A DNA stretch of 64,000 nt, from positions 13,437-77,436 of the IMG/VR virus record IMGVR_UViG_3300031339_000004; one strand, given 5' to 3'. Origin of the DNA: a virus. Of the stretch, positions 4,725-59,556 are shown piece by piece. Below the pieces are notes generated by a model that was not told where the DNA came from, did no database searches, and saw nothing but the letters and a program-made list of their open reading frames with translations. Every line of letters begins with the position of its first letter. The stretch's first letter is position 1. A program made the translations under genes and the position numbers.

Positions 4725-4729
4725 GGATC

Positions 4730-4948
4730 TTGCCTATGAGCGTTGGTGAGATCCTTTTAGAAGTCACCAAGTACGATAACGAACAAAAAGAAATGAAATC
4801 TGAGCTTTTAAAGATATGCTGGTATATGAGAGGAGGAGTTACCTATGAGGAAGCTCATTATCTAACATACGAAGATAAGCTTCTCATAGGAGACATTGTT
4901 AAAGATAATTTGGAAACCACACGTAAAACGGGGCTTCCATTTTACTAA
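4730..4948 (+). CDS. Small gp51-like hub assembly protein, or the -1 frameshift extension of the upstream gene
   Basis: 72-aa ORF directly after the gp26-like gene, in the -1 frame. ATG at 4736 has a possible AAGGA RBS. Confidence 0.55.
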   Translation: MPMSVGEILLEVTKYDNEQKEMKSELLKICWYMRGGVTYEEAHYLTYEDKLLIGDIVKDNLETTRKTGLPFY

Positions 4949-5634
4949 ACTACGCTAACACCAATAAGTTTGTTGGTACTTTCAACAAGGTGGATCCTTA
5001 ATCCTAAGTCACTCCACCTTAAATTATTTTCACGTAGCATCCTGGACAATTCAAGATATGTACTTTGTGTTAAGAATCGTTCTCCTGCTTTAGCATTTGC
5101 TATCCAAGCCTGTTGCTGTCTAGTAACATCTACTCCTGCGCTAGCAAATCTTAAGATTTTCTCTGCTGCCCACACACCATGCTCTTTGCTGCCTTTAGAT
5201 AACTGTGTTAATGCGCGGTTAATTACAACAGCAGTGTTACGAGGCATAGGTTTTTGCCCACCCTGTACTTTTCTAATATCTGATTTTGCTTTTGCATAGG
5301 TATCAGACTGGGCAGCATTCCTGGGATTGTTAGGAGGAGTGCCAGCAGGCGTAGGTGCATTCCCTGCTGGAGGATTTCCTGCTGCTGGCGTAGGAGTAGG
5401 TGGGTTTTCAGCTGGTGGGGTTCCGGCTGGCGTAGGTCTTGTACGACGCTGAGGTGTCCTCTTCTTGTTAGACGATTTACCTTTACTTTTATTTCCAGTA
5501 TACCCGGCCTTAAATCCCTTACCAAAGTCAGCAATGCCCTTTCCAACAGACTTAGCTGCCTTTCCCAGAGTCTTACCTACGCTATCAGAGTCTAGCTCAT
5601 CAAGCTGTGTTTTATTAATTTCTTGTATTTTCAT
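4945..5634 (-). CDS. Hypothetical basic, Pro-rich late protein (possible internal head protein)
   Basis: 229-aa ORF with TAAATA at 5666-5671 (-); N-terminus MKIQEI...LDE; PAGTPP/PAGNPP-type repeats. Confidence 0.6.
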   Translation of the reverse strand: MKIQEINKTQLDELDSDSVGKTLGKAAKSVGKGIADFGKGFKAGYTGNKSKGKSSNKKRTPQRRTRPTPAGTPPAENPPTPTPAAGNPPAGNAPTPAGTPPNNPRNAAQSDTYAKAKSDIRKVQGGQKPMPRNTAVVINRALTQLSKGSKEHGVWAAEKILRFASAGVDVTRQQQAWIANAKAGERFLTQSTYLELSRMLRENNLRWSDLGLRIHLVESTNKLIGVSVV

Positions 5635-13270: not shown

Positions 13271-13566
13271 TGTCTAAAAACTTTGGACCCTATAGCAACA
13301 CAAAGATTAATTCAGCAGGATATTTAGATATCTTTACACCTAGGCCGGTACCAGTAGCAGGCGACGATGTGCTTTACGCAATTACTCCAGCATATACTTA
13401 CCGACCAGACCTACTGGCATACGATCTCTATGGCAAGAAAGAGTTGTGGTGGGTGTTTGCTCAGCGCAATCCGGATATCATAAAAGACCCTGTGTACGAC
13501 TTTGTTGCTGGTACTAAAATATTGCTACCCCAGGGTGCCAATCTAAGAAAGGAGCTGGGTTTATAA
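13270..13566 (+). CDS. gp53-like / LysM-like baseplate wedge protein
   Basis: RPDLLAYDLYG...LWWVF...N motif. Confidence 0.75.
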   Translation: MSKNFGPYSNTKINSAGYLDIFTPRPVPVAGDDVLYAITPAYTYRPDLLAYDLYGKKELWWVFAQRNPDIIKDPVYDFVAGTKILLPQGANLRKELGL

Positions 13567-36300: not shown

Positions 36301-38402
36301 AAGCGTTTATCAGTAACGGTGAACTAATTGATGCAGGGGCTAATACAGACTCTTACCCAAGGAAATACTGGAAGGACAACATTGGATACACAGTTACTGA
36401 GGTTAGGATACAAAACCCAGGTAGTGGTTATACCATTGCTCCTGAGATTAAACTTGAAGGAGCATCTGCAAAGCAGGCCACTGCTAAGGCATTTATCGGC
36501 TATGGCAAAATTACTGCTATCAAAGTTACGTCGCCTGGCGTTGGGTATATCAATATGCCAACTGTAATAATTGATGTTCCACAGAGTGACGTTGGAATTA
36601 GGGCATCTGCAACAGCTATACTAGGCGACGGTGTTGTACGTACACCTACTGTTAAGATTAAGTTTGATAGAACTTCTGGACAATACACTATAGAAGAACT
36701 GGCAGAAGTTGCTAATTTTGTAGGGTCAAATGTAGATATTAACTACAACTTGAAATGGCCAATGGATCTTGATAACAGAAAAGTTAAAGTATATGTTAAT
36801 GAAGTGCAGCAGTTGAGAAGCCAGTATTCATACACTAATATAACCTACTCTCCGACTATTGATACATTAGCTGAAGATTTTAACTACGGTAATGGTAATG
36901 TAGCAGCAGGGCCAGGCACTCAACAGATATCCAATGGCTACACTTACCAGCAAGGAAGAATAATATTTACTAAGCCTCCTGCTAACCAGTCTGATGTACG
37001 AATAGAGTATTACAGACCAATAAGTATGTTGTCAGCAGCAGACAGAATTAAGTTTGCATATAACCCATTAAGTGGAATGTTAGGTAGTGAACTAGCACAG
37101 GTAATGACAGGGATTGATTATGGCGGAGTAGAAGTTAGCGGGCTGGGCTTTGAAATAGAAACAGGGTGGGATACCGAAGGATGGTATACTGATACATGGG
37201 ACACTGATGATACTAACTTTGAAGATGAAGTATTTGTAGCAGATGGGTCAACAACTGCTGTTGAATTAAGAGAGGCTCTTGAAGATGGCGTTATTTATAA
37301 CATCTACAAGAACGGTATTCGTTTAGACGATCCAGAATACGGAACCGCAGAACAGGTTAACCAAAATGCAGTAACATCAAGTATCTTCGGTGACGGTTCG
37401 ACTTCTGTAGTTGAGCTAGCTGATCTAGGAATTACGTTGGTCAACGAGGATGTGTTGATAATTAGAAAATCCACTAGCGACGGTAGTGTAGCGCCTGATG
37501 ATGAAAGTTATGACCAAGCATTGATAGGTGGCAATCTTGCGTACTCGTCTGCGCGAGGAGTTAACCCAGAGGAAATTATTGTCGACGGTGACAGCTTCAT
37601 AACTCCAACAACCAGCGGAGGACCAGAGGAGCTAGTATCTGGACAGGTAATGGACGCGCTAGATTTGAGAGTTTATAATAGAGATGTCTCTGCGGCAACA
37701 AATGTGTCAACGTTTGCATATCGCCAGTTTAAAGACATACTCAACAGAACACACTTTAAGCGTCTAAACAGTGCAGTAACAACCCTTGCTCAACCTTTAA
37801 ATAGTTATGATCTTAGGATCGAAGTTCAAGACGGGGCGAACCTAGCAGTGCCGGATAAAGGGAGAAATCTCCCTGGAATTATCTTTATTGACAAAGAAAG
37901 AATTGAATATTTTGTTAAAGACGGTAACACACTCCGACAATTGCGTCGTGGTACGCTGGGCACAGGCACTGCCCAACAGCATGCTGTAGGAACAAAAGTG
38001 TACGATCAAAACAGTGACAAAACAATTCCGTATAAAGACAGAACTATTGTACAGAATTTTACGACAGATGGCGTTACTGGATCGTTTGCAATTGGCTTTA
38101 CTATATCGTCAGTTAACGAAATTGAAGTATTTGTAGCTGGCACTAGATTGCGCAAGCAAGCAACGCAGGTTTTTGATGCAACAGTTGCATTAAATAGTCC
38201 GGACGGCGATATTAGTATACCTGCAGACTTTGAAATTGTGGACGGAGAAATTGTGCTAACTACAGTACCGGCTGAAAATGTAAGAGTTACAGTAGTTAAA
38301 AAAGTTGGAAATACGTGGGCTAAACCCGGCGAATCTCTTGCAACAACTAACACACCAATAGCAAACTTCTTACGTGCAGGAACTTCGGCGCAGCCAGAAT
38401 AA
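24303..38402 (+). CDS. Giant virion structural protein (4699 aa; gp7-like position)
   Basis: Uninterrupted 14.1-kb ORF after gp6; GxGY repeats, propeller-like FG repeats, five W/Y-rich carbohydrate-binding-like repeats. Confidence 0.8.
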   Translation: MASNDSQNESPLPTPGNNKRTAADLLPRFFRTEANKKFLQGTIDQLIQPGVAEKLNGFLGRKTAKAYKSTDNYISDVSVDRGNYQLEPVAVIKDNLDNVTFYKDYNDYLGSLRYFGANTDNASRLNSQDTYAWAPHIDYDKFVNFREYYWLPNGPLSIQVSGEQRDVVSTYSVTTVNDGDNVAYVFNDTATRNPTLKLYRGQTYRFEIDTPGYPLAFSVNRIFDDSVNVSTFFPDGVRKLDDSGQEVSTAYIEKGTIEFTVPYNAAERVFYLSKNSIDTSGLFRIYDIESNTFLDVADDILGKKTYQTATGLALSNGMKLTFVGNITPANYADSAWYVEGVGTNIKLINEADLVIPAAYSTNKLIPYDSDQFDRFPFANASSYAKSKDYILSNRASKDRNAWSRYNRWFHKAVITAGFEQADLPVNIDEETRAKRPIIEFEAGLKLYSFGTEAKADVTLIDDFTKDVFSTIEGQLGYNVDNVDLTEGMRVLFTADTDILVNGKIYEVNFINVSNQRQISLVEVEDSEPKENETVLVTQGKVNAGVSFYYDNTWKQGQLKETLNQAPLFDLCDCQFGNNLESQEFYDSSTFNGTKLFSYRQGLGSNDLELGFPLTYRNIENSGDILFDFNLLSDKFTYQIDEEVTEVTTDSALLRKYSARTSFEWLNGWSKTPVKSKQYVIRQYEVTNIENNNFRIDVYKDSGLLNDLTTIVYVNNKLQLINVDYEINRINKVAIVQFDKNLLNGDIVQIKTDSKTVKNNNGYYEFPHNLERNPLNQDIKDFTLGEVIAHVDSLIEEVPSFAGAFPGPGNLRDLGDVARFGKKFVKHSGSINFPLYHTTSKEYNIVKALRYSRDEYAKFKRIFLETATTLGFDGNTLMHVDKILERVNKDKIKTQPFYFSDMIAYGPNNVIEYQVLDSRTELYALNNAFNLSTLSARSVLVYLNGKQLIVGSHYTFNPQGFVVVTAGQQEGDILELIEYEVTDGSFIAPTPSKLGLYPKFSPELTIDDTYQTSAPVNPGPYKVYGEQDIVSTNDVRGWFYPVYTTKSAAKAADQVAGGSGQISTVRFKGLTESLYIANSATNILGGQDNVEIDTYPVGIPFIRGHDGSYVRAYLDFRDELLLDLEKRIFNNIKVQWTEDVIDIDGFFGGDFRPSEFSSAEINKSLSPEFTHWLKLVDNDYTDNFFYDRTNEFTYNYSNANNLADEDLPGFWRAVYKQAFDTDRPHSHPWEMLGFRIKPLWWNESYGSAPYTGDNLNMWRDLEQGIVREPGKEIIFLTKYARPGLVNFIPSDQKGKLKSPLASSYVKNFILRLSTQSFKFGDQSPVETAWRRSPQYPFSVVTAMLLNQPSKVFGAGYDVSRIKTNLVGQRVYTETNKFMSNTGVVFPNTSQDSSRVLTSGFVNYIYNLVAGDILSVYSDYQLQFLELRNQLGFKLAGFSDKSKINLVLESTTPRIDAQAGVFVPQENYEVVFNTSSPVDFVVYSGVAIEKTAGGFLLRGYNNDVPFLDYYPPKLGTSGVDITIGGISEIPSNWVADTQFYEGQVIEHNNAYYRATVRFRSQEVFSTDNLAKLPKLPVTGGKSANFKKNFDDRTVLSLQYGERLDSSQEVIDFLLGYGKRLEDLGFDFNYTEAEIVNNWSQAAKEFLFWSTQGWAAGTAITISPAANKVEFKREFAVVDNIFDNFYSYSLLKADGLALLSEYSSLLRDQSSFGIQTVNTDDGLYSVALALVQKEHVVVIDNRTIFNDIIYEPATGYRRDRIKIVGYRSDDWNGGLNIPGFVYDGAVMLEWASWKDFQIGSLVKYKQFYYVAIENVPGSKEFNTSLWYRLSKKPEAELITNFDYRINQFTDFYDLDTDGFDAELQRMAQHLTGYQKRQYLANIITDDVSQYKFYQGMIQDKGTKNALSKMFEKLGAAGKESLEFFEEWAIQVGRYGAIDNTSQIEINLKQDQIRISPQPIELTDDIPLSNLEKVYRIKSFELYDKPANYTGAPFFTKPLVNEYVRTAGYVDENDVTFIAGSTEDLRNGNVDDVALGEYIWITEILDRPWDVYQHVTTGIKVSKLLDNKETNKFGDSLRELTLDRYTTNRILVGDIIGVRDTRTLGVNGFYEVDSIDLIKLNVINIRVPTDAAFETFADENFQLTLLRSVRLNNLLELQDVVQDTLYQDQTAWIDNYNGDWAVLNNSSVYTNEQALTNPVQEEGIEHKYGNEVLVTADNNNVFVTAPEVENGKVYYYRRSSESFNVQLDQEISFAQQGLMTSFANGFASSVSVSPDGEYLIAGLPQASGVKTRFQGLFDPDATYTKNQIVKFRESLWRANRTIFPQISTQPFSTFSSYNNIIGSFDDNDQLAALIIAGDSQLANNVTNHILVRAPKEMYQGTTVGDKVNLFWNARSYSYPTLDFYEPFDGLIPEISSSFLNQEHIIKEKIDHVFYVELYTALPSVNDRVTTDTGQATVYYVSTSRDGVIIYLKESNGTFETSGQLFIDNQDLIGVYTEEDTVSTNDAVTGFWYIETPTDYSNNGVYYDAGKGLVYADVRIENETREVNDYYNIQLTAGVIGNDFDDRNQASFVAQLSFTGDLTSADGQVGPEVSVPSSQWLVRTGKVFSDTLVSGDQLQLSLFESNERIINFAPSGLTGGYSTFNKLQTIVDMWDGYIDFNFTRFDAQGFVFQPQIGDVLEDLQMPRNGQGGLAITGITTSSAEVTWVQRNFNQVRVYVKNITGTWDQLNNIGRYNVKRNRNTAIRGQADVDRIIGVVEDSDNDICVGNDLIGKLIVFEADEIFADSRKWNEIIPITGEEYWFYTENIAQGAGRVPNPPFSLNKDYVQIYHIEADNFGTAGPVNEGAVAIYRRLTGGTYSYQRTIVSEYGMEDRQFGRDVEIRQVGNYYTLFVSSIGNGAQQELVGGIEIFRHGALAGENFKGNYAPGTYIKGDIVTFEDDYYVANKDQTEVESRIKDSIFWANISWKQGKDSNYRGEWNNSYGYAEGSIVFYNDKFYSAVTNISTGAGFVTTDWKQLSNLIDYVGFLPNVTGFTAYNEEVFESSNTPNVLVDFSKAYDISSNGQVIVTTATITGSDSTVNDTRVLIYRETDNKFLLSQIINAPELQNSTNWAYKISMRPDGMSFAISASLDDSAKVNQGQVYIYMQVDSEFVLTQTLLPPNNEEGEQFGYDMSYGQDNLVISSLNGDQKIPTTFDLVTNNETIIDNRFTRFNETILDSGVVYIFETLNDQLVFSERFRYDSATSQFGETLLSNGNHVYVGIPSLVTTTGQGVVVDYRKPKGKFAWNVLRESIVPVDISKIQGVFVYNKRTNEIITYLDYIDPVQGKIAGIAEQDITYKIGTDPAAYNVGILSDNTVDVDIFWAEKQVGQVWWNINTARFEWPYQGSISYQKEVWNVLAQGASIDVYEWVETQYTPLRWDALSATDAGSSLGITGTSLYGDEKYSARLTYDDISQTFSTVYYFWVQNKRDVPVNRTLSVFDITNLIRSPREQGYRFVSFLSDSRMVLNNFENIVTSDDVVLNIRYDTRETKIQNTHLQYLLMSDGSGVSKPTADIERKWFDSLIGFDENNRPVPNPAIPIAKRTGIQNRPRQGMFVNRTEALKQFIERVNLVLSKNLVVDQYQTSRLFSKDDAPSIATRKYDIVVDTTFDLDFLSINKITPARLEPVIVNGKIIQVNILSSGRGYKIEPTVEVAGAGKNFEVKLSINNLGQVTTAIVTNEGSGYGDATVLLPRRYSVLVNNDDNLNGKWAIYSWNEIERNWFRTQIQAFDVSRFWDYRDWYAEGFNQFTDIDFEIEGTYLLGGLRDTIGNVVKAKSISSGGWLLLKKIANEETEDFTINYDTIGRQAGTISFNESLYNVEKNAVGFDSRSYDSFFYDSVIAKELRIIFEVIRDDLFIAELAVEYNQLFFASLRYVLSEQPAVDWMFKSAFINVKHNVGNLDQKVNFENDKLASYQAYVNEVKPYSSKVREFISSYTSIDDTQSAVTDFDLAPQYDILTKRIVTSKAFISNGELIDAGANTDSYPRKYWKDNIGYTVTEVRIQNPGSGYTIAPEIKLEGASAKQATAKAFIGYGKITAIKVTSPGVGYINMPTVIIDVPQSDVGIRASATAILGDGVVRTPTVKIKFDRTSGQYTIEELAEVANFVGSNVDINYNLKWPMDLDNRKVKVYVNEVQQLRSQYSYTNITYSPTIDTLAEDFNYGNGNVAAGPGTQQISNGYTYQQGRIIFTKPPANQSDVRIEYYRPISMLSAADRIKFAYNPLSGMLGSELAQVMTGIDYGGVEVSGLGFEIETGWDTEGWYTDTWDTDDTNFEDEVFVADGSTTAVELREALEDGVIYNIYKNGIRLDDPEYGTAEQVNQNAVTSSIFGDGSTSVVELADLGITLVNEDVLIIRKSTSDGSVAPDDESYDQALIGGNLAYSSARGVNPEEIIVDGDSFITPTTSGGPEELVSGQVMDALDLRVYNRDVSAATNVSTFAYRQFKDILNRTHFKRLNSAVTTLAQPLNSYDLRIEVQDGANLAVPDKGRNLPGIIFIDKERIEYFVKDGNTLRQLRRGTLGTGTAQQHAVGTKVYDQNSDKTIPYKDRTIVQNFTTDGVTGSFAIGFTISSVNEIEVFVAGTRLRKQATQVFDATVALNSPDGDISIPADFEIVDGEIVLTTVPAENVRVTVVKKVGNTWAKPGESLATTNTPIANFLRAGTSAQPE

Positions 38403-49207: not shown

Positions 49208-50109
49208 TGTCAAGCGTGATTAACGTAGTAGAGTGTGATATAATCTTCCTCTCTTACGACGAGCCAAACGCAGAGAAGAATTACGCAGACCTGTGTTCTA
49301 AGGTACCGTGGTCCAAGCGCGTACACGGTGTTAAAGGCAGTGACGCAGCCCATAAAGCGTGTGCAGCACTGTCAGAGACTGAGTATTTTGTTACTGTAGA
49401 CGCTGACAACATTGTTGACCCAGCGTTCCTTCAAGTGCAAATAGATTTAGACAAGTTAGAACTGACCCAAGATCACGTGTTTAGTTGGTGCGGCAAGATT
49501 TCAGTCAATGGATTAATGTACGGCAACGGCGGTCTCAAATTGTGGACCAAGAAGTTTGTTGAAAACATGAGGACGCACGAAGCAGCAGAAGTAGATGACG
49601 CCGACGGCGCAGTTGATTTTTGTTTTGATCATAGATATTACCAGTTTAATGAAAACTACAGTACTAGCTTCATTTGTTCTAGTCCTTTCCAGGCCTGGCG
49701 CGCTGGATTTCGTGAAGGTGTAAAAATGAGTCTTGATCAAGGAGTAAAGGCTAATAACATTAAAGACGTGTGGTGGCAGAACTATCAACGATTATTAATT
49801 TGGTGTAATGTGGGAGCAGATGTAAAAAACGGGCTCTGGAGTATGTTAGGGGCCCGCGAGGGATGTTACCTAACAGCTTGCACTGACTGGGATCACAATC
49901 AGGTGAGAGATTTTGAGTACCTGACAAGTTTATGGAACGAAAAGTACAAAGGCATGACCGAGACCTGCGTTGATGAAAAAATGCAAGAACTTGGCACGGT
50001 ATTACGTGTCAACGCAGGTCTCGAAATTGCAGCCCTTGACTCAATGGGTTCGGCATTCTTTAAGCAAGTTTACGAGAACACTCCGCGAATTATTAGAAGG
50101 AGCGTATGA
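49207..50109 (+). CDS. GT-A (GT2-like) glycosyltransferase
   Basis: DIIFLSYDEPNA, RVHGVKG...AH, VTVDAD (DxD), NGLMYGNGG, AWRAGFRE. Confidence 0.7.
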   Translation: MSSVINVVECDIIFLSYDEPNAEKNYADLCSKVPWSKRVHGVKGSDAAHKACAALSETEYFVTVDADNIVDPAFLQVQIDLDKLELTQDHVFSWCGKISVNGLMYGNGGLKLWTKKFVENMRTHEAAEVDDADGAVDFCFDHRYYQFNENYSTSFICSSPFQAWRAGFREGVKMSLDQGVKANNIKDVWWQNYQRLLIWCNVGADVKNGLWSMLGAREGCYLTACTDWDHNQVRDFEYLTSLWNEKYKGMTETCVDEKMQELGTVLRVNAGLEIAALDSMGSAFFKQVYENTPRIIRRSV

Positions 50110-51389
50110 ATAAAAGAATTAATATACTAGTAACAAAGCACAAACACAAGTTACTGGCAGGATTGCCTCACAAGCATTCCAACTGGTCGCACAGTTTTGA
50201 TATGAACAGATGGAATGCTCTTTATGATAAATTTGGCCTGTGCGATCACAAGACCCTAGATGAAATTGTACCTGGAGAAAAATACATAATTTATATAAGT
50301 GTGTACAGAGATATACTTGATAAGGCTTACAACCCAATGTTTGCATTTCACAGAGATAGTCATCTAAAACTATCTAGATATCCAATGCCACTGCGTGTTA
50401 AGAAAGATAATAGAAAAGGACGAGTGCATTGGATAATTGACTTTTCTACCGAATGTGAGCAACTTAATGAACAATGGGGGACTGATACAGCAAAGTTATT
50501 GCAAACTCTTAATACAACCCCAGATAATGTCACTTTACTTACAGGGTCATCGTCGTTTGGAAGTACAGGAAGATTGTTATCAGACGATGCATTAACAAAT
50601 AAAAGATACAATGTTGTTACTGGGTATGATCTTTTTGACTTTGTTAACTTAGACAATCATAACGAATACATTCAAGAAAAGTTGTCGTTGATATTACGTA
50701 AGTCGATAATGCCATATAAATCTTTATGCTATAACAGACTACCTCGTCAACATCGTACTGTGATAGTAGCGCACATAATGAACAAGAAGTACGAAGACCA
50801 GACGTTGTTTAGCTTAGGGACGTTTTCTAAAATTCCAAAAGAGTCTCGGTGGTTTAATTGGAGAAGCTATTTTCCTGAGTACGAAAATCAGTTTAAGATA
50901 CTAGAAACAGCAGGAGATATATACCCTAGTATCAAAGAAAAAGAAGCTGATCTTCAAGTAAATCTAGCTCCTACTACTGGATGGATACACGGACTTAATT
51001 CTAGCTTCCAGTTAGTAACAGAAACACACTCACCTAATGCACCGTATCCGTTCTTAACAGAAAAGACATTAAAATCGTGTGCTATGCTACAGCCTTTTAT
51101 TCAGTGCGGTCCCATGAATAATATTAAATTTCTAAAAGAGTTTGGCTACAATACTTTTGACACTTACATTGATCACAGCTATGATAGTGAGCCAGATGAT
51201 GTTAAACGCCTAAGGATGGTGTTAGCAGAATTTGATAGGCTTCAAGCAATACCGGCAGAGCAATGGGCTAATATGCTGTATGATATGACAGAAGATCTAT
51301 TACACAATGCGTATTTGGTTAAAAACTCTCCCGCAAGGTGTACCGAATCACAGCTAGTGCCGATATTAATGAAACATTGCAACGGGTAG
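50106..51389 (+). CDS. Hypothetical protein, possibly a GT-B-type glycosyltransferase
   Basis: NRLPRQHR and LVTET...FLTEKT.K....QPFI motifs; glycosylation-gene context. Confidence 0.45.
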   Translation: MNKRINILVTKHKHKLLAGLPHKHSNWSHSFDMNRWNALYDKFGLCDHKTLDEIVPGEKYIIYISVYRDILDKAYNPMFAFHRDSHLKLSRYPMPLRVKKDNRKGRVHWIIDFSTECEQLNEQWGTDTAKLLQTLNTTPDNVTLLTGSSSFGSTGRLLSDDALTNKRYNVVTGYDLFDFVNLDNHNEYIQEKLSLILRKSIMPYKSLCYNRLPRQHRTVIVAHIMNKKYEDQTLFSLGTFSKIPKESRWFNWRSYFPEYENQFKILETAGDIYPSIKEKEADLQVNLAPTTGWIHGLNSSFQLVTETHSPNAPYPFLTEKTLKSCAMLQPFIQCGPMNNIKFLKEFGYNTFDTYIDHSYDSEPDDVKRLRMVLAEFDRLQAIPAEQWANMLYDMTEDLLHNAYLVKNSPARCTESQLVPILMKHCNG

Positions 51390-51418
51390 AGTAAATAAAT
51401 TAACTAACAGGAGCTACG

Positions 51419-52636
51419 ATGAACATAGGATTTATAGGTACAGGTAAATTAGGCATGCCCTGCGCTGAAGTAATGTCAAGCAACGGACACTGTGTTAAAG
51501 GATATGACGTTGCGCATTGCGCAAGCGACACAGTTTATATAGTAGACTCGATTAAAGAATGTGTAGAGGACACAGATATTGTATTTGTGGCAGTGCCGAC
51601 ACCACACGACCCAGACTACGACGGCAGTATTCCGACTGCGCATTTAACGCCAAAAGACTTTTCTTATGATATAGTCAAAGTTGTGTTAGCAGAAGCAAAC
51701 CAGTATATGAATGAGAACCAATTACTAGTTCTCGTATCAACTGTTCTTCCGGGCACTACAAGAAGAGAGTTTGTTGAGTTAGTAGACAACACTAGATTTG
51801 TTTACAACCCGTATCTTATTGCTATGGGCAGCGTTAAGTGGGATATGGTAAATCCAGAGATGGTAATGATAGGTACTTGTGACGGCAACGAGACAGGTGA
51901 TGCTAACGAACTAATAGAGTTCTATAAAACTATCATGAAGAACGATCCTCGTTATGTTGTCGGTACTTGGGACGAGTGCGAGTGCATCAAAGTGTTTTAC
52001 AATACCTTTATATCAACTAAGATTGGGTTAGTGAATATGATACAAGACGTTGCGCAAAAGCAAGGCAATATTGACGTTGATGTTGTGACTAAAGCATTAG
52101 CTGAGTCTGATATGCGCATTATGGGCAAACAGTACATGACAGCAGGAATGGGCGACGGTGGTGGTTGTCACCCAAGAGATAACATTGCTCTACGCTATTT
52201 GGCAGAAAAGCTAGATCTAGGGTACGATCTGTTTGGTGCCGTTATGCAGTCAAGGGAGACCCAGGCAGAGAATCTAGCAAAAGTATTAGTTGAGCAAGCT
52301 AAACAACACAATATGCCCATATACATCCATGGAAAAGCGTATAAGCCAAGGGTTCCGTACGTTGACGGAAGTTACAGTTTACTGGTTGGATATTATTGTG
52401 AAAAAGCAGGATTTCTGCCCACGTATATAGATCCGTACACTGGTGATGATTATCAACCTACAGAACCAGGCGTATTCTTAATGGCACACTCTGCTTCGGT
52501 TACTTACGAGTATACAGGTAAACAGTCAGTAGATGAACTGTACTGTTCAATACCTCCTTTTAGTATTATAGTCGATCCTTGGCGTAAAATAACATCCAGT
52601 GTAAGCACAGTTATTCATTATGGTAATACTAAGTAA
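51419..52636 (+). CDS. ugd: UDP-glucose/GDP-mannose dehydrogenase family protein
   Basis: GxGxxG (IGTGKLG), FVAVPTP, STVLPGT, K..YN, GGGCHPRD (catalytic Cys region), AYKP; TAAATA at 51392-51397. Confidence 0.88.
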   Translation: MNIGFIGTGKLGMPCAEVMSSNGHCVKGYDVAHCASDTVYIVDSIKECVEDTDIVFVAVPTPHDPDYDGSIPTAHLTPKDFSYDIVKVVLAEANQYMNENQLLVLVSTVLPGTTRREFVELVDNTRFVYNPYLIAMGSVKWDMVNPEMVMIGTCDGNETGDANELIEFYKTIMKNDPRYVVGTWDECECIKVFYNTFISTKIGLVNMIQDVAQKQGNIDVDVVTKALAESDMRIMGKQYMTAGMGDGGGCHPRDNIALRYLAEKLDLGYDLFGAVMQSRETQAENLAKVLVEQAKQHNMPIYIHGKAYKPRVPYVDGSYSLLVGYYCEKAGFLPTYIDPYTGDDYQPTEPGVFLMAHSASVTYEYTGKQSVDELYCSIPPFSIIVDPWRKITSSVSTVIHYGNTK

Positions 52637-52665
52637 TTGACATATTTAATAAAAAGTAGTACAAT
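52637..52665 (+). promoter_or_regulatory. Sigma70-type promoter, probably giving a leaderless mRNA
   Basis: TTGACA (52637-52642), 17 nt, TACAAT (52660-52665); ATG at 52671 with no SD. Confidence 0.65.
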
Positions 52666-52670
52666 ATATT

Positions 52671-53360
52671 ATGTATGATATAATTTTTATAAGCTACAAT
52701 GAAATTAACGCAGAAGAAAACTGGGAATCTCTTAAACGCAGATTCCCGGCAGCTAAACGGGTAGACGGAGTTAAAGGAATTCACCAAGCTCACATCAAAG
52801 CAGCTAAACAGTGCTTTACTAAGATGTTTTGGGTAGTCGATGCTGACGCGCAGCTAGCTGACGATTTTTCTTTTGAATATAAAGTAGATGAGTATTCCCT
52901 AGACACAGTGCATGTTTGGCGCAGCATTAATCCTATTAACGGATTAGAATACGGCTACGGAGGCGTAAAGTTACTGCCGCGCAGGCTCACTTTAAATATG
53001 GATTTTGACAGCCATGACGTGACTACCAGTATTTCAACCAATTTTAAAGCAATGCCAGATATATCAAATATAACCAGTTTTAATACAGATGCGTTTGCAA
53101 CATGGAGAAGCGCATTTAGAGAGTGTGCTAAACTAGCAAGCAACACCATAAGAGGACAAATAGACGAAGAAACTAAACAACGCCTTGATGTTTGGTGCAC
53201 AAGTGGTAGAGGAGCAATGTTTGGAGACTATGCTCTTAGAGGAGCCGCCGCTGGCCGCAAATATGGCACTGTTTATCAGTTTAATAATGAGCTAGGAAAG
53301 ATAAACGATTATGACTGGCTGTACCAACAATTCTTAGAGGAGAACAAACTCAACGTATGA
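52671..53360 (+). CDS. GT-A (GT2-like) glycosyltransferase, paralogue of 49207-50109
   Basis: DIIFISYNE.NA, RVDGVKG...AH, WVVDAD, NGLEYGYGG, TWRSAFRE. Confidence 0.7.
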   Translation: MYDIIFISYNEINAEENWESLKRRFPAAKRVDGVKGIHQAHIKAAKQCFTKMFWVVDADAQLADDFSFEYKVDEYSLDTVHVWRSINPINGLEYGYGGVKLLPRRLTLNMDFDSHDVTTSISTNFKAMPDISNITSFNTDAFATWRSAFRECAKLASNTIRGQIDEETKQRLDVWCTSGRGAMFGDYALRGAAAGRKYGTVYQFNNELGKINDYDWLYQQFLEENKLNV

Positions 53361-53476
53361 GCTATCAAGATATTCCGTTCGAAGACATAACTAGTTTCGG
53401 ACAGCAAACAATGTTAGATAACAAACTGTTTGCTGTATCTTGGATATTGGCTAGATTTTGTAACTATAACTGCTAA
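53357..53476 (+). pseudogene. Truncated 5' end (39 codons) of the radical SAM gene; not in the ORF track
   Basis: Translates MSYQDIPFEDITSFGQQTMLDNKLFAVSWILARFCNYNC*; 32 of 34 aligned residues are identical to the N-terminus of 54427-55428; ATGA-coupled to the upstream gene. Confidence 0.9.
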
Positions 53477-53506
53477 ATAACATACATAACTACAAAAGGA
53501 TAAATT

Positions 53507-54427
53507 ATGTTATTAACTAACGATTACGTGTTACAAGTTACATCAGGCAGTCTATCTCGAAAGATAAAGCGTGATTTCCCTAAGGAACATGTAGTAATTT
53601 CTAATATATCCGAAGTAGAAGATTTTAAGGAAAAAGTGTTTTTATATCTCAATCCTAATACTGTGTATGTCTGTAAGCGATGTACGCAGAAGACAAAAAT
53701 GCGACGTTACTCACAAGGATTTTCTGATTTCTGCTCTGTAAAATGTAGGGGACAAGCTGCAAGGACTGTTACAAAAAAGCTGCCGGTAATAACAGAACAC
53801 AATGTAACATATTGGCCGTTATACCACGTTGTTGTAGACATAGCTAAAAATCCTAATTATTCAAAAGCACAAGTAAAACGAGAATTTTTTGAGTTTTATT
53901 GCTTTGTTCAGCACAGTTTTGAGTACACTAACTTTAATGAAAAACTATTTGCATACTTAAATAATAGTAGTATTTCTTCTTCTTCCTGTAAGACGTGCAA
54001 CGGAGTTACTCAGTTTAGCCCAAAAGATTTTAGATACAAAAATTTTTGTTCGAGACAGTGTGCAAACATTTATAATAAACCTTACTTAACAGGCGGTTAT
54101 AACGCAAAGTATTTTCAACAGTATCCTAAAGAAAAAAGCAAACCTGCTCAGTTTTATTTTATAGAATTAGCAAATAACAAAGAACGGTTTTTAAAAATAG
54201 GAATTACCTGCCGAGATTTTAAAATCAGAAAAAACGAGATATGCGGATCAAAGTATATTGTTACTATCTTGTATACAAAGGAAACAACACTTTACGAATG
54301 TCATTTACTAGAGAATAGACTTTTAAGTGACAATACTATTCGTAAATATGTTCCGTCAAATCATATTTCAGGAAAAACAGAGTGTTTTGACATTACCGAG
54401 AAGAACTCAATACGGAAACTTATTTAA
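53507..54427 (+). mobile_element. Free-standing homing endonuclease-like gene (Zn-finger repeats plus GIY-YIG/T5orf172-like domain)
   Basis: Two CxxC...FCSxxC units; FYFIEL....FLKIGIT....R...E...GKTECF; AT-richer than neighbours; own TAAATA (53474-53479) and AAGGA RBS. Confidence 0.8.
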
Positions 54428-55428
54428 TGCATGATTCATCTACAGACTACAGTAAAATACCCTTTAATGACATTACGAGTTTCGGTCAACAAACGATGTT
54501 AGATAACAAGTTATTTTCAGTGTCTTGGATATTGGCTAGATTTTGCAACTATAATTGTTCTTACTGTTGGAGTTATGCTCGAACGAGTGTTCCGGACCAC
54601 CGTCAGCTAGAACTATACAAAAACACAATAACAGAGATCAAACGTCAAGCTAGAGCCAACGGATTTACAGAGTTTCATTTCTCGTTTAGTGGTGGTGAGC
54701 CAACAGCGTACAAGAAATTTGGCCAGTTAATAGAGCACTATGTAAACGACGACTTTGCCCAGTATCAAAGTCTGCATATGACTACGAATCTAAGCCCAGG
54801 TAGTAAATGGTGGAACAAATGGCTAGAAGTAACTGCACCTCTTGCTCGTCGCAGTATTACAGCTAGCTTTCATGCAGAGTTTGCTCGTGAACAAGAGTTT
54901 GGAGACAAGTGTTTGCAACTACTTGACAACAACACTTATCTCACTATTAACCAAGTAATGGTTCCTGAACTGTTTGACGAGTATTATGAGAGATGTGCAA
55001 GGTTTGCGGAACGTGGTATAAACGTCACACTAAAGCCACAGAGCAACGATACGGCTACTGAAGTGGTAGAGGGCTATACTGACGCACAAAAACAACTTCT
55101 TCAAATTGGATTCCCTCAAGAGTACCACGGAGAGGTCGCTCCGCAAGTTCGATTGGAAGATAGACAAGGCAATACTTATTATATAGATCAAGCAGAACGA
55201 TTTAATGCATTTGGTTTTAATAAGTTTCAAGGATGGAATTGTAACGCAGGTTTTCAAAGTTGCATCATACGCGAGCCCGGTGGCGAAGTTAAACGAGCTT
55301 ATAGTTGCCACGACGTTCCACTAGGAACTATTCAAGACGGATTTAGCTTATTTACAAGTCCGGCTACCTGTATTACTCCGACTTGCGTAAGTTCTGCAGA
55401 TTCAAAAATACCCAAGGTAAAACAATGA
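54427..55428 (+). CDS. Radical SAM enzyme with C-terminal Twitch/SPASM-like Cys motif
   Basis: CNYNCSYC, SGGEPT, TTN, F.GW.C.AG...C...C....C. Confidence 0.9.
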   Translation: MHDSSTDYSKIPFNDITSFGQQTMLDNKLFSVSWILARFCNYNCSYCWSYARTSVPDHRQLELYKNTITEIKRQARANGFTEFHFSFSGGEPTAYKKFGQLIEHYVNDDFAQYQSLHMTTNLSPGSKWWNKWLEVTAPLARRSITASFHAEFAREQEFGDKCLQLLDNNTYLTINQVMVPELFDEYYERCARFAERGINVTLKPQSNDTATEVVEGYTDAQKQLLQIGFPQEYHGEVAPQVRLEDRQGNTYYIDQAERFNAFGFNKFQGWNCNAGFQSCIIREPGGEVKRAYSCHDVPLGTIQDGFSLFTSPATCITPTCVSSADSKIPKVKQ

Positions 55429-56027
55429 AAGTAGAAATCGAAGACGTATTATTTTGGATGGATGCGGTGCGCAACTCGAGTAGTAGATACAGAACTCTTG
55501 AGAGCTTTTGGAAGGGACAAGTACGATCAAAAGTATGGTTAGTAGAAGCACTTACTAGGTATGCCCCTGCAAGTGCATCGAAATATGTCATTCACGGTGG
55601 CTGGAACGGCGTGCTTGCTAGTATTTTATTTAATAGCAATCTGCAAATTAGAGAAATACATTCTTACGATATCGATCCTGACTGTGAGGAAACAGCCTGC
55701 ACGGTAAATAAAAGACAAGAGATGCAGGGAAGGTTCCGAGCAATTACTGGCGATTTAACTCGGCAGATATATAGAGGTGACGTAGTAATTAACACCATTT
55801 GTGAGCACTTAACACAAGTACAATATAATCAGTGGTTAAGCTTAGTTCCGACGAATGCGCTTGTTGTTCTGCAGAGTAACAACTATTTTGATTGTGCAGA
55901 GCACGTTCGGTGTCACTCAACACTACAAGAATTTGAAGAACATTCGGAAATAGAAGTTATACACCGCGACGAACTAGAAACACCACTGTACACAAGATTT
56001 ATGTTGATAGGGAGGAAAATTGTTTAA
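55425..56027 (+). CDS. Class I SAM-dependent methyltransferase-like protein
   Basis: Start moved to ATG 55425 (ATGA overlap); VIHGGWNG, SYDID, VINTICEH. Confidence 0.7.
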   Translation: MKVEIEDVLFWMDAVRNSSSRYRTLESFWKGQVRSKVWLVEALTRYAPASASKYVIHGGWNGVLASILFNSNLQIREIHSYDIDPDCEETACTVNKRQEMQGRFRAITGDLTRQIYRGDVVINTICEHLTQVQYNQWLSLVPTNALVVLQSNNYFDCAEHVRCHSTLQEFEEHSEIEVIHRDELETPLYTRFMLIGRKIV

Positions 56028-57099
56028 ATTTACAGAGCTCGAAGATATCCACTTTGAGATAACCAACAAGTGTCAAGCAGCTTGTCCGATGTGCTCAAGA
56101 AACCATCATGGCGGCCAAGATAATCCGTTAATAAAAAATCAGGAATGGTCAATTGACGATTTTAAGAAGATAGCCACGCCCGAAGTTCTGGACCAAATTG
56201 AAGGTTTCTATATGTGCGGCAACTTTGGTGATCCTATTATTAACAAGGATCTTATTGATATGATTGATTACGCCGCTCAAACAAACCCTAATCTTAATAT
56301 TCGGATACACACAAACGGAAGTGCCAGAACTACAGATTGGTGGAAACAGTTAGCGAAAGTCTTACCCAAGACGCATAAAGTAATATTTGCATTAGATGGA
56401 TTAGAAGATACACATCATCTTTATCGTGTTGGTACCGATTTTAATCGTATTATTAAAAATGCTATTGCATTTATTAGCGCAGGCGGTAACGCCGAATGGT
56501 GTTTTATAAAATTTAAACATAACGAGCATCAAGTAGAAGAAGCCAGAAGCCGGGCCAAAGAGACCGGATTTGCGCTGTTTACTGAGAAGAACAGTTCTAG
56601 ATTTGTAGGAAGTCCTAAATTTCCGGTATACGACAATAAAGGAGAAACGCAGTACTTCATTAAGCCGCCTTCTTCCTCGGAGCTTCCTTTTATTTCAGAA
56701 GATACTGTTAAGAATTATAGAAAAGTATTAGGCGACTCTGAAATTAATTGTTACGTTCAGCACACTAAAGAGATATACATTGATGCGTATAGAAATGTTT
56801 TTCCGTGCTGTTTTCTTGCAAGCGCACCTTACAACTACGCACCTGCAAATGACATCACTAGAGAGATAAGAACTCACATGCTACAGCAGTATCGAGAGTT
56901 AAAACAAACACTGGGAGATACTAACGCCCTGAATCGATCAGTTAACGACATTGTTAGCTCTGATAGTTGGCAGACTGCTTGGGAATACTATTGGACGCAA
57001 AACAAGTTAGTAACATGTGCGAGAACCTGCGGAAGCGTAGCAGAGCTTCCTAAGCCAAAAGATCAATTTATTAAGGTAACTATATTAAACAATGACTAA
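56020..57099 (+). CDS. Radical SAM enzyme
   Basis: CQAACPMC, GNFGDP, HTNGS, PCC and CARTC auxiliary Cys. Confidence 0.9.
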   Translation: MFKFTELEDIHFEITNKCQAACPMCSRNHHGGQDNPLIKNQEWSIDDFKKIATPEVLDQIEGFYMCGNFGDPIINKDLIDMIDYAAQTNPNLNIRIHTNGSARTTDWWKQLAKVLPKTHKVIFALDGLEDTHHLYRVGTDFNRIIKNAIAFISAGGNAEWCFIKFKHNEHQVEEARSRAKETGFALFTEKNSSRFVGSPKFPVYDNKGETQYFIKPPSSSELPFISEDTVKNYRKVLGDSEINCYVQHTKEIYIDAYRNVFPCCFLASAPYNYAPANDITREIRTHMLQQYRELKQTLGDTNALNRSVNDIVSSDSWQTAWEYYWTQNKLVTCARTCGSVAELPKPKDQFIKVTILNND

Positions 57100-58501
57100 C
57101 AAATGGTACAATGACAAAGACAGCCAACTAGGCAAATATCAACGAGAAATAGAAACAGTTTCAGGTTCGCAAAGTTACTGCGTACTGCCGTGGATTCACT
57201 TCGCTACCCGTCCTAACGGAGATATGCGATTGTGTTGCAGTGCAAACGCCAGCGGCGCAGGCAATGACCACGAAGTGGGCTTGGTTAAAATGGAAGACGG
57301 CAAACCTGCAAACTTTGGCAAGGACACTCCAATAGCCGCATGGAATAACGATTACATGAAAAGTGTGCGTACAACTATGCTCAAAGGCGAAGTTCCTGCA
57401 AGTTGTACTAAGTGCTTTAAAGAAGAAAGTCAAGGAGTTGTGTCTAAACGAATATGGGAGACAATGACTTGGCACCGCGATGACGTTGACATCCCCTACC
57501 TAATAGAGCAAACTAAACAAGACGGAACAGTGCCAGAAGAACTGCAATACCTTGACCTAAGACTTGGGCATACTTGTAACATCAAATGTGTAATGTGTAG
57601 TCCTCATGATTCTAGCAAATGGGTCAAGGACTGGCAAAAGTTATTACCTCAAATTGAAGACCAAGATGTCAAACAACAACTTCAATTCGACAAAGATAAT
57701 TTTGACAATAAGTGGCATCAAAAAGATACTTTCTGGAAAGAGATGTACAAGCAGGTACCAAACCTTAAACAGGTGTACTTTGCTGGCGGCGAACCCCTTA
57801 TGATTAAAGAACACAAGATGTTTATTCAAGAAATCATAAGACAAGGTTACCAAGATAAAATATTACTGCGTTATAACTCAAACGGACTGCTAGTTGACAA
57901 CGAATTGTTAGAGTTATGGAAGAAGTTTAAAAAGGTTAAGTTTGCTATCAGCATGGATGCCTGTGGTCCACGCGACGAATACATTCGCTTTCCTACAGAC
58001 TTTGCACAAGTTGAGAAGACGCTTCATATGTTAGACGATTCACCTGATAATATTCAGACTAGTCTAGCAACAGCAATACAGATTTTTAACATCAAACATT
58101 TGCCAGAGTTCATGAAATGGAAGATTCGTTCTAACTTTAAGAAGCTAAACGAAGGCACAGTACCGGGTGGAGTACAGATGGGAGGCGGTCTTGTGAACAT
58201 GCACCTACTGTATATTCCTACGTTTCTTAGCATACAGATACTTCCGCTAGAAGACAAACTAGAAGTGCATCGAATTTTTGCAGAGTTTAAAGTGTGGCTT
58301 TGGGAAAACTATCGTCAGGACGACGACTTTTGGAAAACTAACCCTTATGGATGGAAGCGATGGGAAGCGGTATTAAAACATATGGACGCTCAAGACAACA
58401 GTCATCTGTTGCCTGGCTTTAAAGAATACGTGACTAAACTAGATGCAATACGAGGCAACTCAGCTAAGATAGTATTTCCGGAGTTGGCACACTTGCTTTA
58501 A
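57092..58501 (+). CDS. Radical SAM enzyme with N-terminal SPASM/Twitch-like domain
   Basis: CVLPW...RLCC...CTKC before CNIKCVMC; AGGEP; NSNG. Confidence 0.9.
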   Translation: MTNKWYNDKDSQLGKYQREIETVSGSQSYCVLPWIHFATRPNGDMRLCCSANASGAGNDHEVGLVKMEDGKPANFGKDTPIAAWNNDYMKSVRTTMLKGEVPASCTKCFKEESQGVVSKRIWETMTWHRDDVDIPYLIEQTKQDGTVPEELQYLDLRLGHTCNIKCVMCSPHDSSKWVKDWQKLLPQIEDQDVKQQLQFDKDNFDNKWHQKDTFWKEMYKQVPNLKQVYFAGGEPLMIKEHKMFIQEIIRQGYQDKILLRYNSNGLLVDNELLELWKKFKKVKFAISMDACGPRDEYIRFPTDFAQVEKTLHMLDDSPDNIQTSLATAIQIFNIKHLPEFMKWKIRSNFKKLNEGTVPGGVQMGGGLVNMHLLYIPTFLSIQILPLEDKLEVHRIFAEFKVWLWENYRQDDDFWKTNPYGWKRWEAVLKHMDAQDNSHLLPGFKEYVTKLDAIRGNSAKIVFPELAHLL

Positions 58502-59556
58502 AGCAAGTTGAACACTTCTATATGTTTAGCTTTAGGAATGCAAGTTCCGCACCCGCAACGATTGTTTGGGCATACTATAGGACTACCGTTTACTGCATTT
58601 TTGGCGTAGTCCAGTATAGCAGCAGTATCGTTCAAACTGCCCAGCGGTCCTCTTTTGCCACCGTGTAGTGCTTGACAAGTTTGATGATGATAGACTAATT
58701 TATCATGTTGGTCAATGTGCATAAAAAATTTATTAACAGAGCAGAACCATCCTTTAAAATTATTGTCAACGTGAGTTACCGGAACCCACTCACCGCCAAC
58801 TTTTCCTGTCATGCACCTTCCGCCACAACAGCCTCTACCCATTGCTGATCCTTCTTTTTTCTGCTTTGCAGGATTAGTTTGCCCGATATAGTCAAAGTAC
58901 CACTCTTGTTGTGCCTCGCTGTAACTATGACTAGTTCTGCGCATAGACCCATCGGTGTCTACAAACCAACCGCTTCGTTCTGACGTTCCGTCTCCGATCG
59001 GCCTTGGAGAATGCGTTATGCCTAGGTCTTTTAGTAAATAGCAGACTTGTTTAACTTCTTCAAAGTGATCAACGTGCATCATTACATTTATCTTCAACCA
59101 GATTCCTGATTTATAAAGTCGTTTAATATTTTCTATAACGTGAGCTTTGGCCTTTGCTCCGCCTTCGGGATGGTAACTAACAGTTAATCCGTGGAACAAA
59201 TCTACTATCTCCTCGGTTCGTCTAGGATGCCATACTCCGTTAGTTGTTAATCCGCAACTTAGTTGGGGTTCGTGATCTTTTATATGTCTAGCCAATTTCC
59301 AAAAGTCAGGATTAGCAGTAGGTTCCCCGCCAGTAAAGTCTACATTTACGCCTTGTTTTTCTGTGTCGTATATGCTAGTGTATTCTTTAACAAATTCTAG
59401 TGTAGTTAATAACTCGTCGTAGGAATGATAGGGGCTATACGTGTTGTGTCTAGTAGCTTCGCAGTAAGTGCAATTAAAATTACATCGTCTACCTGTGTCC
59501 CAGGTCACCATCATTTTTTCTGGGCCAGCTAATGTTATTGCTTCTGTTTTTATCAT
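58498..59556 (-). CDS. Radical SAM enzyme
   Basis: CNFNCTYC, TGGEPT, TTNG, Cys-rich C-terminus (CCGGRC, CPNNRCGCGTC). Confidence 0.9.
   Translation of the reverse strand: MIKTEAITLAGPEKMMVTWDTGRRCNFNCTYCEATRHNTYSPYHSYDELLTTLEFVKEYTSIYDTEKQGVNVDFTGGEPTANPDFWKLARHIKDHEPQLSCGLTTNGVWHPRRTEEIVDLFHGLTVSYHPEGGAKAKAHVIENIKRLYKSGIWLKINVMMHVDHFEEVKQVCYLLKDLGITHSPRPIGDGTSERSGWFVDTDGSMRRTSHSYSEAQQEWYFDYIGQTNPAKQKKEGSAMGRGCCGGRCMTGKVGGEWVPVTHVDNNFKGWFCSVNKFFMHIDQHDKLVYHHQTCQALHGGKRGPLGSLNDTAAILDYAKNAVNGSPIVCPNNRCGCGTCIPKAKHIEVFNLL

Follow-up and report, generated by a model that had tools for sequence, protein, structure and literature searches.

A candidate homing-endonuclease cassette that supplies a new start to a phage radical SAM gene

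An intron, an intein or an intergenic site is generally regarded as necessary if a homing endonuclease is to spare the gene that hosts it. How, then, can a nuclease gene lie inside the CxxxCxxC codons of a radical SAM gene, one of the most conserved motifs of enzymology, with neither intron, intein nor intergenic site to accommodate it? The question is raised by a stretch of viral DNA of 64,000 nucleotides (nt), positions 13,437 to 77,436 of the IMG/VR virus record IMGVR_UViG_3300031339_000004. This stretch is referred to here as the window, and the features of the locus all lie on its plus strand. Our answer, to which we assign a probability of around 0.8, is that the locus represents a currently mobile, free-standing homing-endonuclease cassette sited at the second Cys codon of the motif. 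As judged from sequence comparisons, the moving unit is some 1.13 kilobases (kb) long and spans at least 53449-54573. It would contain 25-36 nt from the end of the displaced gene start, a leader, the nuclease gene, 44 substitute codons of the radical SAM gene and a TGT TGG AGT patch.

A displaced gene start and its substitute

The anatomy of the locus can be read directly in the sequence and, in its main elements, is as the initial annotation had described it. A gene of 229 amino acids (aa) without a family match (52671-53360) ends in a TGA that overlaps, as ATGA, the start of an open reading frame (ORF) of 39 codons plus TAA (53357-53476). This short ORF, the stub, represents the native 5' end, now displaced, of the radical SAM gene. 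In empty alleles the same ATGA overlap joins the upstream gene to the intact radical SAM start. The stub encodes MSYQDIPFEDITSFGQQTMLDNKLFAVSWILARFCNYNC (..WILARFCNYNC), and its TAA (53474-53476) comes after the second Cys of CxxxCxxC; it is taken to be both a dead remnant and a left homology arm. There follows a 33-nt leader (53474-53506), in which TAAATA (53474-53479), opened by the stub TAA, stands 28 nt ahead of the next ATG and an AAGGA ribosome-binding site occupies 53496-53500. The free-standing nuclease gene, of 306 aa, extends from 53507 to 54427, where its stop overlaps, as TAATG, the start of an intact radical SAM gene of 333 aa (54427-55428; PF04055, E 6.8e-12). The latter is a single uninterrupted frame that combines a cassette-borne start, the 44 codons of the replacement 5' end (54427-54558), with a resident body. 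Its product reads ..SWILARFCNYNCSYCW, with CNYNC followed by SYCW, and hence harbors the complete motif.

The stub and its substitute encode nearly the same peptide in different codons. Between 53372-53473 and 54457-54558, 83 of 102 nt are identical (81%), the longest identical runs being 23 and 14 nt. The 34 aligned codons comprise 18 that are identical, 14 that differ synonymously and 2 that are non-synonymous (E/N and A/S), a recount that agrees with the 32 identical residues and 14 synonymous codons first reported.

Since a relative, the contig L082, has an intron at this very codon, the stub and the downstream gene might be imagined as exons joined by RNA splicing, or the nuclease gene as a segment that ribosomes bypass. 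This is very improbable. No Rfam match was found in 52500-56000 at E values up to 1, the downstream ORF is a full frame that begins at an ATG of its own and includes the three Cys codons, and the stub TAA lies 950 nt ahead of the equivalent point. The invasion without splicing that the initial annotation envisaged has thus withstood the search for an intron. An assembly chimera or a collapsed repeat in one metagenome contig is an explanation suggested by the metagenomic derivation of the virus record, and is more improbable still. A 12.5-kb contig from sequencing run X1, which is probably the source sample, covers 52700-55409 without a single difference, and runs X2, X3 and X4 independently contain pieces of the cassette. 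A variant of the nuclease, protein P0001, is recorded on four further contigs. Because pieces of the structure are present in contigs of four sequencing runs (X1-X4), and because a diverged version of the same architecture is repeated in the unrelated contig L082, the structure of the locus is not an artefact of a single assembled record.

Empty, converted and patch-only alleles

If a cassette has entered the gene, alleles that have not received it should be in circulation. Two queries with the radical SAM gene each matched more than 590 IMG/VR stretches, and 159 other loci were fetched and compared. In all 159 the N-terminal motif and SYCW are contiguous and the gene is uninterrupted. Two of these loci, L002 and L003, share the upstream gene of the window and encode a radical SAM protein to which that of the window is 98% identical. 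Their 5' end follows the stub letter for letter over 105 nt and continues as TGC AAC TAT AAT TGT TCT TAC TGC TGG, which is the empty allele that had been predicted but for one letter, TGT having been expected in place of TGC. The identity of the stub to the intact L002 5' end at 105 of 105 nt, up to position 53460, indicates that the resemblance between stub and copy is not due to chance.

The comparison with L002 also sets bounds on what was inserted. Along the left flank, 49363-53460, there are 4 mismatches in 4.1 kb (99.9% identity), followed by 3 synonymous mismatches (53461, 53470 and 53473) in the last 15 nt of the stub. On the 3' side of the cassette, mismatches occur at 54567, 54571, 54572, 54579 and 54585, and thereafter only at 54693 and 55152 up to 55200. 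Because the mismatches are confined in this way between near-identical flanks, the foreign tract is recent and bounded, from about 53461 to 54585, with the end of the stub included. The part of the stub that would travel with the cassette (53438-53473) differs synonymously from the empty allele of the window's own lineage at the three positions given. The cassette-linked patch (54567-54585) has TGT TGG AGT TAT GCT CGA ACG where the naive allele has TGC TGG CCT TAT GCG CGA ACA. The window and the near-identical genomes L002/L003 and L004 thus exhibit a presence/absence polymorphism at one site, and markers flanking that site have been co-converted, in that the foreign letters at 53461, 53470, 53473 and 54567-54585 stand in flanks that otherwise equal L002. 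The initial annotation took the mobile unit to be promoter, nuclease and replacement start; these three parts are retained, and to them must be added the end of the stub, with its three synonymous sites in the last 15 nt.

That annotation also dealt with the synonymous codons, on which it needs correction. It had been proposed that recoding destroys the target of the nuclease. In the copy, however, all 44 positions from 54523 to 54566, on either side of the insertion point, match the naive allele, including the 36 nt that adjoin that point, and recoding therefore cannot protect the site. Nor do the differences call for purposeful recoding. They are best explained by an origin of the cassette in another lineage, since the same pattern of divergence is reported in the mobile open reading frames (mORFs) of fungal mitochondria (PMC3630166), and the stub would be unchanged because the insertion is recent. 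The divergence plausibly slows deletion by recombination between the repeats, given that the identical runs are so short.

The cassette also appears to be present in a second background. Contigs of 811, 411 and 1185 nt from runs X2 and X3, when aligned to 52700-55500, cover 53417/53427 to 54597/54599 and match 53438-54581 except for 54036 A>T, which changes Tyr177 to Phe and gives the variant P0001 mentioned above. Their unaligned ends (ACTCTTCTC, TAACGACT and ..ATCGCCC) and an adjoining contig (ATGGTGGTAAGAAATGACAAACTATAACAG) have the letters of a lineage represented by L007-L009, in which the radical SAM gene is around 75% identical in nucleotides to that of the window. The counts of differing letters, 6, 6 and 3, are those expected for L007-type flanks. 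Because both the end letters and the counts fit such flanks, the same cassette, one base different, appears to sit in an L007-type lineage. The crossovers would then fall at 53438-53448 on the left, inside the stub, and at 54574-54581 on the right, just 3' of the Cys motif, so that the end of the stub, the leader, the nuclease gene and the replacement start would travel together. Run X4 contains pieces of the nuclease gene together with a naive allele (stub-type letters at 54510-54522 and TGC TGG CCC). Taken together, these alleles suggest that the cassette is currently moving between phage lineages.

A further allele seems to have been touched by the nuclease without acquiring its gene. L007 is 99.7% identical to L008 and L009, differing at 16 of 5566 nt, and four of the 16 differences turn TGC TGG CCC into TGT TGG AGT, the patch of the cassette, in a locus that has no nuclease gene. 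The encoded changes are TGC to TGT at 54567 and Pro to Ser at 54571-54573 in window coordinates. Pro occupies this position in 158 of the 159 uninterrupted alleles and Ser in L007 alone; the replacement of CC by AG is the diagnostic change, because TGT is common for the third Cys. The simplest account is that the patch is a footprint of cutting, in which a break in a naive L007-type allele was repaired from the downstream copy of the cassette without gain of the nuclease gene; a crossover in the 11-nt identity TGTTCTTACTG could be an equivalent route. Such a footprint would place the cut within the CxxxCxxC codons or directly 3' of them, and makes the patch, with its exchange of Pro for Ser, the probable immunity change; the patch lies beyond the coordinates that the initial annotation compared. 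An origin of the L007 allele by recombination between stub and copy in a cassette-bearing L007-type allele was considered and rejected, as neither repeat has the letters ATTAGCGCGATTCTGCAATTACGAG that L007 itself displays beside the site. At 122-140 of L007 there is a further cluster of 8 mismatches to L008 in 19 nt, in contigs that are otherwise 99.7% identical.

These alleles bear on whether the nuclease has any part in the movement at all. It might be inactive, or cut elsewhere, and be spread as a passenger by ordinary homologous recombination between co-infecting phages. The phage genomes compared are mosaic in any case, as is illustrated at 56300-56500, 57500-57900 and 58600-59400, where the window diverges from L002 in patches, and the nuclease copy in L082 is frameshifted. 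We nonetheless judge a passive role unlikely. The ORF in the window is intact and conserves the Tyr, Lys-Ile-Gly, Arg and Glu positions of its superfamily. The converted tracts of two lineages end within tens of nucleotides of one site, and the four-base patch in L007 falls exactly at that site in a genome otherwise 99.7% identical to its relatives. The same insertion point is, moreover, used by L082, in which the coding DNA has diverged to 63-65% identity.

The nuclease, its expression and an intron-bearing relative

The protein encoded within the cassette was initially described as a zinc-finger, GIY-YIG-like nuclease, a description that its conserved residues support. It contains two zinc-finger modules of the form CxxC..FCSxxC (residues ~56-80 and ~161-185), followed by a probable T5orf172/GIY-YIG-type domain at the C-terminus (residues ~205-306), and its PHROGs label is endonuclease or homing endonuclease (681/3339). 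Five relatives are 52-60% identical. A profile built from the relatives retrieves 1916 proteins, in nearly all cases by a match to the C-terminal 110-150 residues, and Pfam T5orf172 (PF10544) is matched by 20 of 31 short aligned homologs, with P0010 and P0013 above the cut-off. Other homologs of the nuclease carry DUF723/CapR-type zinc fingers, and a combination of CapR/DUF723-like zinc fingers with a T5orf172 domain is the architecture described for T5orf172 homing endonucleases (Barth et al., PMC10448857). In 31 sequences Y217, K230, G232, T234, E269, G289 and E292 are invariant and R241 is conserved in at least 90%; the Tyr of strand 1, the K230-I-G232 of strand 2, and the Arg and Glu positions that characterize the GIY-YIG superfamily are all present.

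A structural model of the domain (predicted local distance difference test, pLDDT, 94.7; predicted template modeling score, pTM, 0.85) has as its top three VIA matches the GIY-YIG nucleases Slx1 (6seh_C; Z 5.3, root-mean-square deviation 3.3, 81 residues aligned), At-HIGLE (7wme_A; Z 5.1) and Slx1 (7cq2_A; Z 4.7), and the same three are returned for the full-length model. A sequence search of the PDB with A3 gave nothing relevant. With moderate to good confidence, then, the protein can be predicted to act as a T5orf172-type GIY-YIG nuclease. One protein of 5388 aa, P0009, has 22 separate stretches that match positions 194-243 of the nuclease profile, the segment between zinc finger 2 and the nuclease core.

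With regard to expression, a sigma70-like promoter (TTGACA-17-TACAAT, 52637-52665) lies ahead of the 229-aa gene. Because no terminator follows it, this promoter should transcribe the stub, the nuclease gene and the radical SAM gene early. TAAATA in the leader could add late transcripts. The form [CG]ATAAATA is found 10-47 nt ahead of six other starts in the window (3808, 5671 on the minus strand, 20362, 20835, 42974, and 61754 on the minus strand), and is possibly the late promoter form of the source phage; the canonical T4 late promoter TATAAATA is under-represented in the window, with 2 sites against 6.4 expected. The late promoter core of the initial annotation can accordingly be kept in part: TAAATA does begin at the stub TAA, but the core is imperfect, a point taken up below. 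No obvious ribosome-binding site precedes the radical SAM start, and for that reason translation from this start probably depends on coupling to the nuclease stop. A 9-bp stem formed by AAUAACAUA and UAUGUUAUU (53476-53484 with 53505-53513) covers the start codon of the nuclease, and is reminiscent of the control of T4 I-TevI. It would mask that start in read-through transcripts, and would leave it free in transcripts begun after TAAATA.

The diverged relative L082, a contig of 7.6 kb in which td- and frd-like genes precede the locus, was the sole match to the junction pattern across IMG/VR. The nuclease as a single-protein query in IMG/VR gave no match, as did scans of metagenome contigs with profile A2 and with the exact junction of stub and leader. 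L082 contains, in order, a 40-codon stub (..RFCNYK*), a leader, a nuclease gene (4001-4919), a second 5' copy of the radical SAM gene (..RFCNYR*) and a group I intron. The nuclease is 58% identical in amino acids to that of the window and shares its insertion junction. The leader has been retained to a greater extent, with 90% identity (28 of 31 nt) between window positions 53474-53506 and L082 positions 3967-4000. Since the nuclease and radical SAM coding DNA is only 63-65% identical, conservation of this non-coding leader suggests a constrained promoter or translation signal, and the promoter core in the L082 leader, GATAAATA, is perfect. The stub end TGTAACTATAA, which is common to the window and L082, was rejected as proof of common stub descent, as 23 of the 159 naive alleles have it.

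The L082 intron (RF00028, 104.7 bits, E 1e-27, Rfam span 5036-5242) is 244 nt long (5046-5289) and without an ORF, its 3' end at G5289 being read from P1 and P10. P1 (CGGU/GCCG, with U.G at the splice site) and P10 (GUUC/GAAU) place the splices after T5045 and G5289, with CNYRCSYCWPYA as the predicted ligated product, in which CNYRCSYC is restored. The intron thus interrupts the second Cys codon between bases 1 and 2, and its site is 2 nt away from that of the left cassette junction; exon 2 retains the naive TGC TGG CCC. On its sequence, L082 is a collaborative-homing arrangement with an added stub, and the window is the intron-less form of the same cassette.

The ancestor may have been an L082-like, intron-bearing system of collaborative homing, from which the window derives by loss of the intron and gain of the patch. 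This concerns history only and is compatible with present mobility of the cassette. The position of the L082 intron, in the same Cys codon as the junction, favors such a descent, as does the ICP1 locus, where a T5orf172 nuclease gene lies by terL exon 1 with an intron downstream (PMC10448857). However, none of the 159 uninterrupted loci has the intron, with or without a nuclease gene; L082 exon 2 is still naive, the window has no trace of an intron, and two copies cannot give the order of events. We view this history as possible but somewhat doubtful.

The window forms part of a 77-kb record with an estimated completeness of ~21%. Among the other genes of the window are those for SbcCD-like (gp46/47-type) nucleases, a gp5-like baseplate hub/lysozyme and tail fibres, together with a sugar/radical-SAM tailoring block, and the stretch has been found in metagenome runs from a salt lake and from lake water. 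On the basis of this gene content and these runs, the source phage is treated as a large T4-like myovirus of lake bacteria. Megablast of 52671-55428 against 50,697 phage records gave zero matches, and in tblastn against phage records the radical SAM protein matched only Campylobacter phage CP21 (23%) and the nuclease only Vibrio phages D181 and D148 (31%, C-terminal half only). The mismatch clusters between 56300 and 59400 lie in the radical SAM/tailoring block, with near-identity to L002 between them, and indicate mosaic recombination unconnected with the cassette. Elsewhere in the window a single ORF of 4699 aa occupies 24303-38402 amid tail and fibre genes.

Proposed mechanism and comparison with known homing systems

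How such a cassette might move and yet spare its host gene can be outlined as follows. In a mixed infection the nuclease would cut the naive allele at most ~25 nt 3' of the insertion point, and the break would be repaired off a cassette-bearing genome, with the stub as the left arm and the body of the gene as the right. The target gene contains both arms, so that the cassette could enter this gene regardless of its upstream neighbour. The gene would be kept working without splicing. Translation would restart at the cassette ATG, to which the nuclease stop is coupled, with the former start persisting as a dead stub of 39 codons. The carrier would be protected at the stub through interruption of the site, and at the new copy probably through the patch; in L082 a group I intron in the same codon would take on this role. 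Of these elements, the anatomy, the empty alleles, the bounds of the tract, the patch-only allele, the L082 intron and the nuclease family are observed, and cleavage and its position, immunity through the patch and late timing are predicted from them.

Several points weigh against this account. With respect to the nuclease, the C-terminal 112 residues score 17.1 bits against PF10544 (E 0.008, 4-91 of 101 profile positions), under the cut-off of 20, and the full-length protein has no Pfam match at E values up to 0.1. The Z scores of the fold matches, 4.7-5.3, are low, being under 8, and Foldseek found no significant match in the PDB for either the full-length or the domain model. In L082 a single base is missing from a Cys codon near 4733, which divides the nuclease gene into ORFs of 244 and 64 aa and represents either recent decay or an assembly error. 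With respect to control, the promoter core in the window, GCTAAATA, departs from the [CG]ATAAATA that precedes other genes, and no RNA run was found among the runs that contain the stretch. The stem over the nuclease start codon is a weak one (-4.7 kcal/mol, z -1.9) with no counterpart in L082, for which reasons its candidacy as a conserved regulatory hairpin was dropped. With respect to movement, the second lineage is represented by short Logan contigs of 171-1213 nt, in which the differing letters near the ends are inferred from counts, and the best match to the replacement 5' end among 160 loci, sought as its donor lineage, is only 82-88% identical. Finally, immunity based on the patch is not assured, given that in the T4 MobA element site polymorphisms alone did not stop nicking (bioRxiv 10.1101/2022.08.31.505936).

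A broader reading, which we propose tentatively and at a little short of even odds, is that cassettes which replace a gene's start constitute a third general route, alongside introns and inteins, by which homing endonucleases can occupy conserved phage motifs. With both arms inside the target gene, the unit would be independent of gene order, and the same vehicle could bring along a group I intron that has no nuclease of its own, as in L082. An intron and a patch of a few bases would then be interchangeable immunity devices, and the family would capture steps on the disputed route that unites free-standing nucleases and introns; the origin of nuclease-intron partnerships has been called unclear (Barth et al., PMC10448857). 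A single family in natural lake populations presents naive alleles, a freshly invaded one, an apparent second invaded lineage, an allele hit without insertion (L007) and an intron-bearing copy. The locus thereby makes testable the basis of immunity, whether a change of two to three bases or an intron, as well as the length of conversion tracts and the origin of the partnership between nuclease and intron. Its particular value resides in the population evidence of ongoing movement, and in its connection, at the same codon, with a group I intron. Automated gene calling will turn stubs of this kind into small hypothetical genes, and will treat the new start as a variant N-terminus. The initial annotation was aware of no such description for phage radical SAM genes, but the kind itself has two published analogues, the mORFs of fungal mitochondria and the T4 MobA element; in a literature search of incomplete coverage, no paper was found on replacement of a phage gene's 5' end with a stub left behind, or on a homing element in a radical SAM motif.

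Collaborative homing has been described for F-CphI with the psbA intron of cyanophages, for T3/T7-like phages, and for the ICP1 T5orf172 gene by terL exon 1 (PMC10448857; PMC2988022). L082 resembles these systems in having a free-standing T5orf172-type gene directly 5' of exon 1, and a nuclease-less group I intron at the presumed target. The nuclease family, which combines T5orf172 with CapR/DUF723-like zinc fingers, is that described for ICP1. The window differs in having no intron, and both the window and L082 have a duplicated exon 1, the stub, 5' of the nuclease gene, a feature not found described for collaborative-homing loci.

The free-standing Seg and Mob endonucleases of T4 undertake intronless homing, and mobE splits nrdA in Aeh1 (PMC2988022). 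Like the cassette as proposed here, these systems dispense with intron and intein, involve double-strand-break repair with co-conversion of flanking markers, and are located in or beside conserved genes. In contrast to the window, they are intergenic or split a gene into two working polypeptides, and none is described that re-supplies a whole gene end.

The MobA element of T4-like phages was reportedly treated by Bonocora and colleagues in PNAS in 2011. It consists of mobA with an N-terminal extension, homR and the gene 60 bypass (bioRxiv 10.1101/2022.08.31.505936). As in the window, a free-standing phage homing endonuclease is found within a conserved coding region, and the insert carries a diverged copy (67-81% in MobA) of the target segment that surrounds the cut site, a predicted one in the window. 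Both have relatives that are empty but nearly identical, as well as derivatives without the nuclease, and MobA has been inserted independently in several clades. Unlike the window, MobA employs an HNH nuclease and divides the topoisomerase gene into two polypeptides, the replaced segment is deleted with no stub, and immunity is conferred via a 50-nt translational bypass. The window, for its part, has a predicted T5orf172-type nuclease and a single polypeptide, with no bypass.

A parallel in form is provided by fungal mitochondria, where mORFs generate gene hybrids of atp6, atp9, cox2 and nad3 in Glomus (PMC3630166) and where an mORF is reported in atp6 of Allomyces macrogynus (PMC3630166, citing Paquin et al. 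1994). As in the window, an endonuclease ORF is accompanied by an in-frame foreign copy of a gene end, and the native end survives, out of place, as a remnant. The part of native origin is nearly identical to its counterpart in close relatives, and the inserted piece is diverged in DNA (64-81% in mORFs) but almost identical in protein. The mORFs are, however, a mirror image: the end that they replace is the 3' one, with the remnant on its downstream side, and in the window it is the 5' end that is replaced and the stub lies upstream. The mORFs also belong to mitochondrial hosts and mostly encode LAGLIDADG nucleases, and it is peculiar to the window that the new start needs an initiation site of its own, coupled to the nuclease stop. 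By its composition, the locus in the window is a gene hybrid of the mORF type, one that differs in its orientation, at the 5' end of the gene, and in its phage host.

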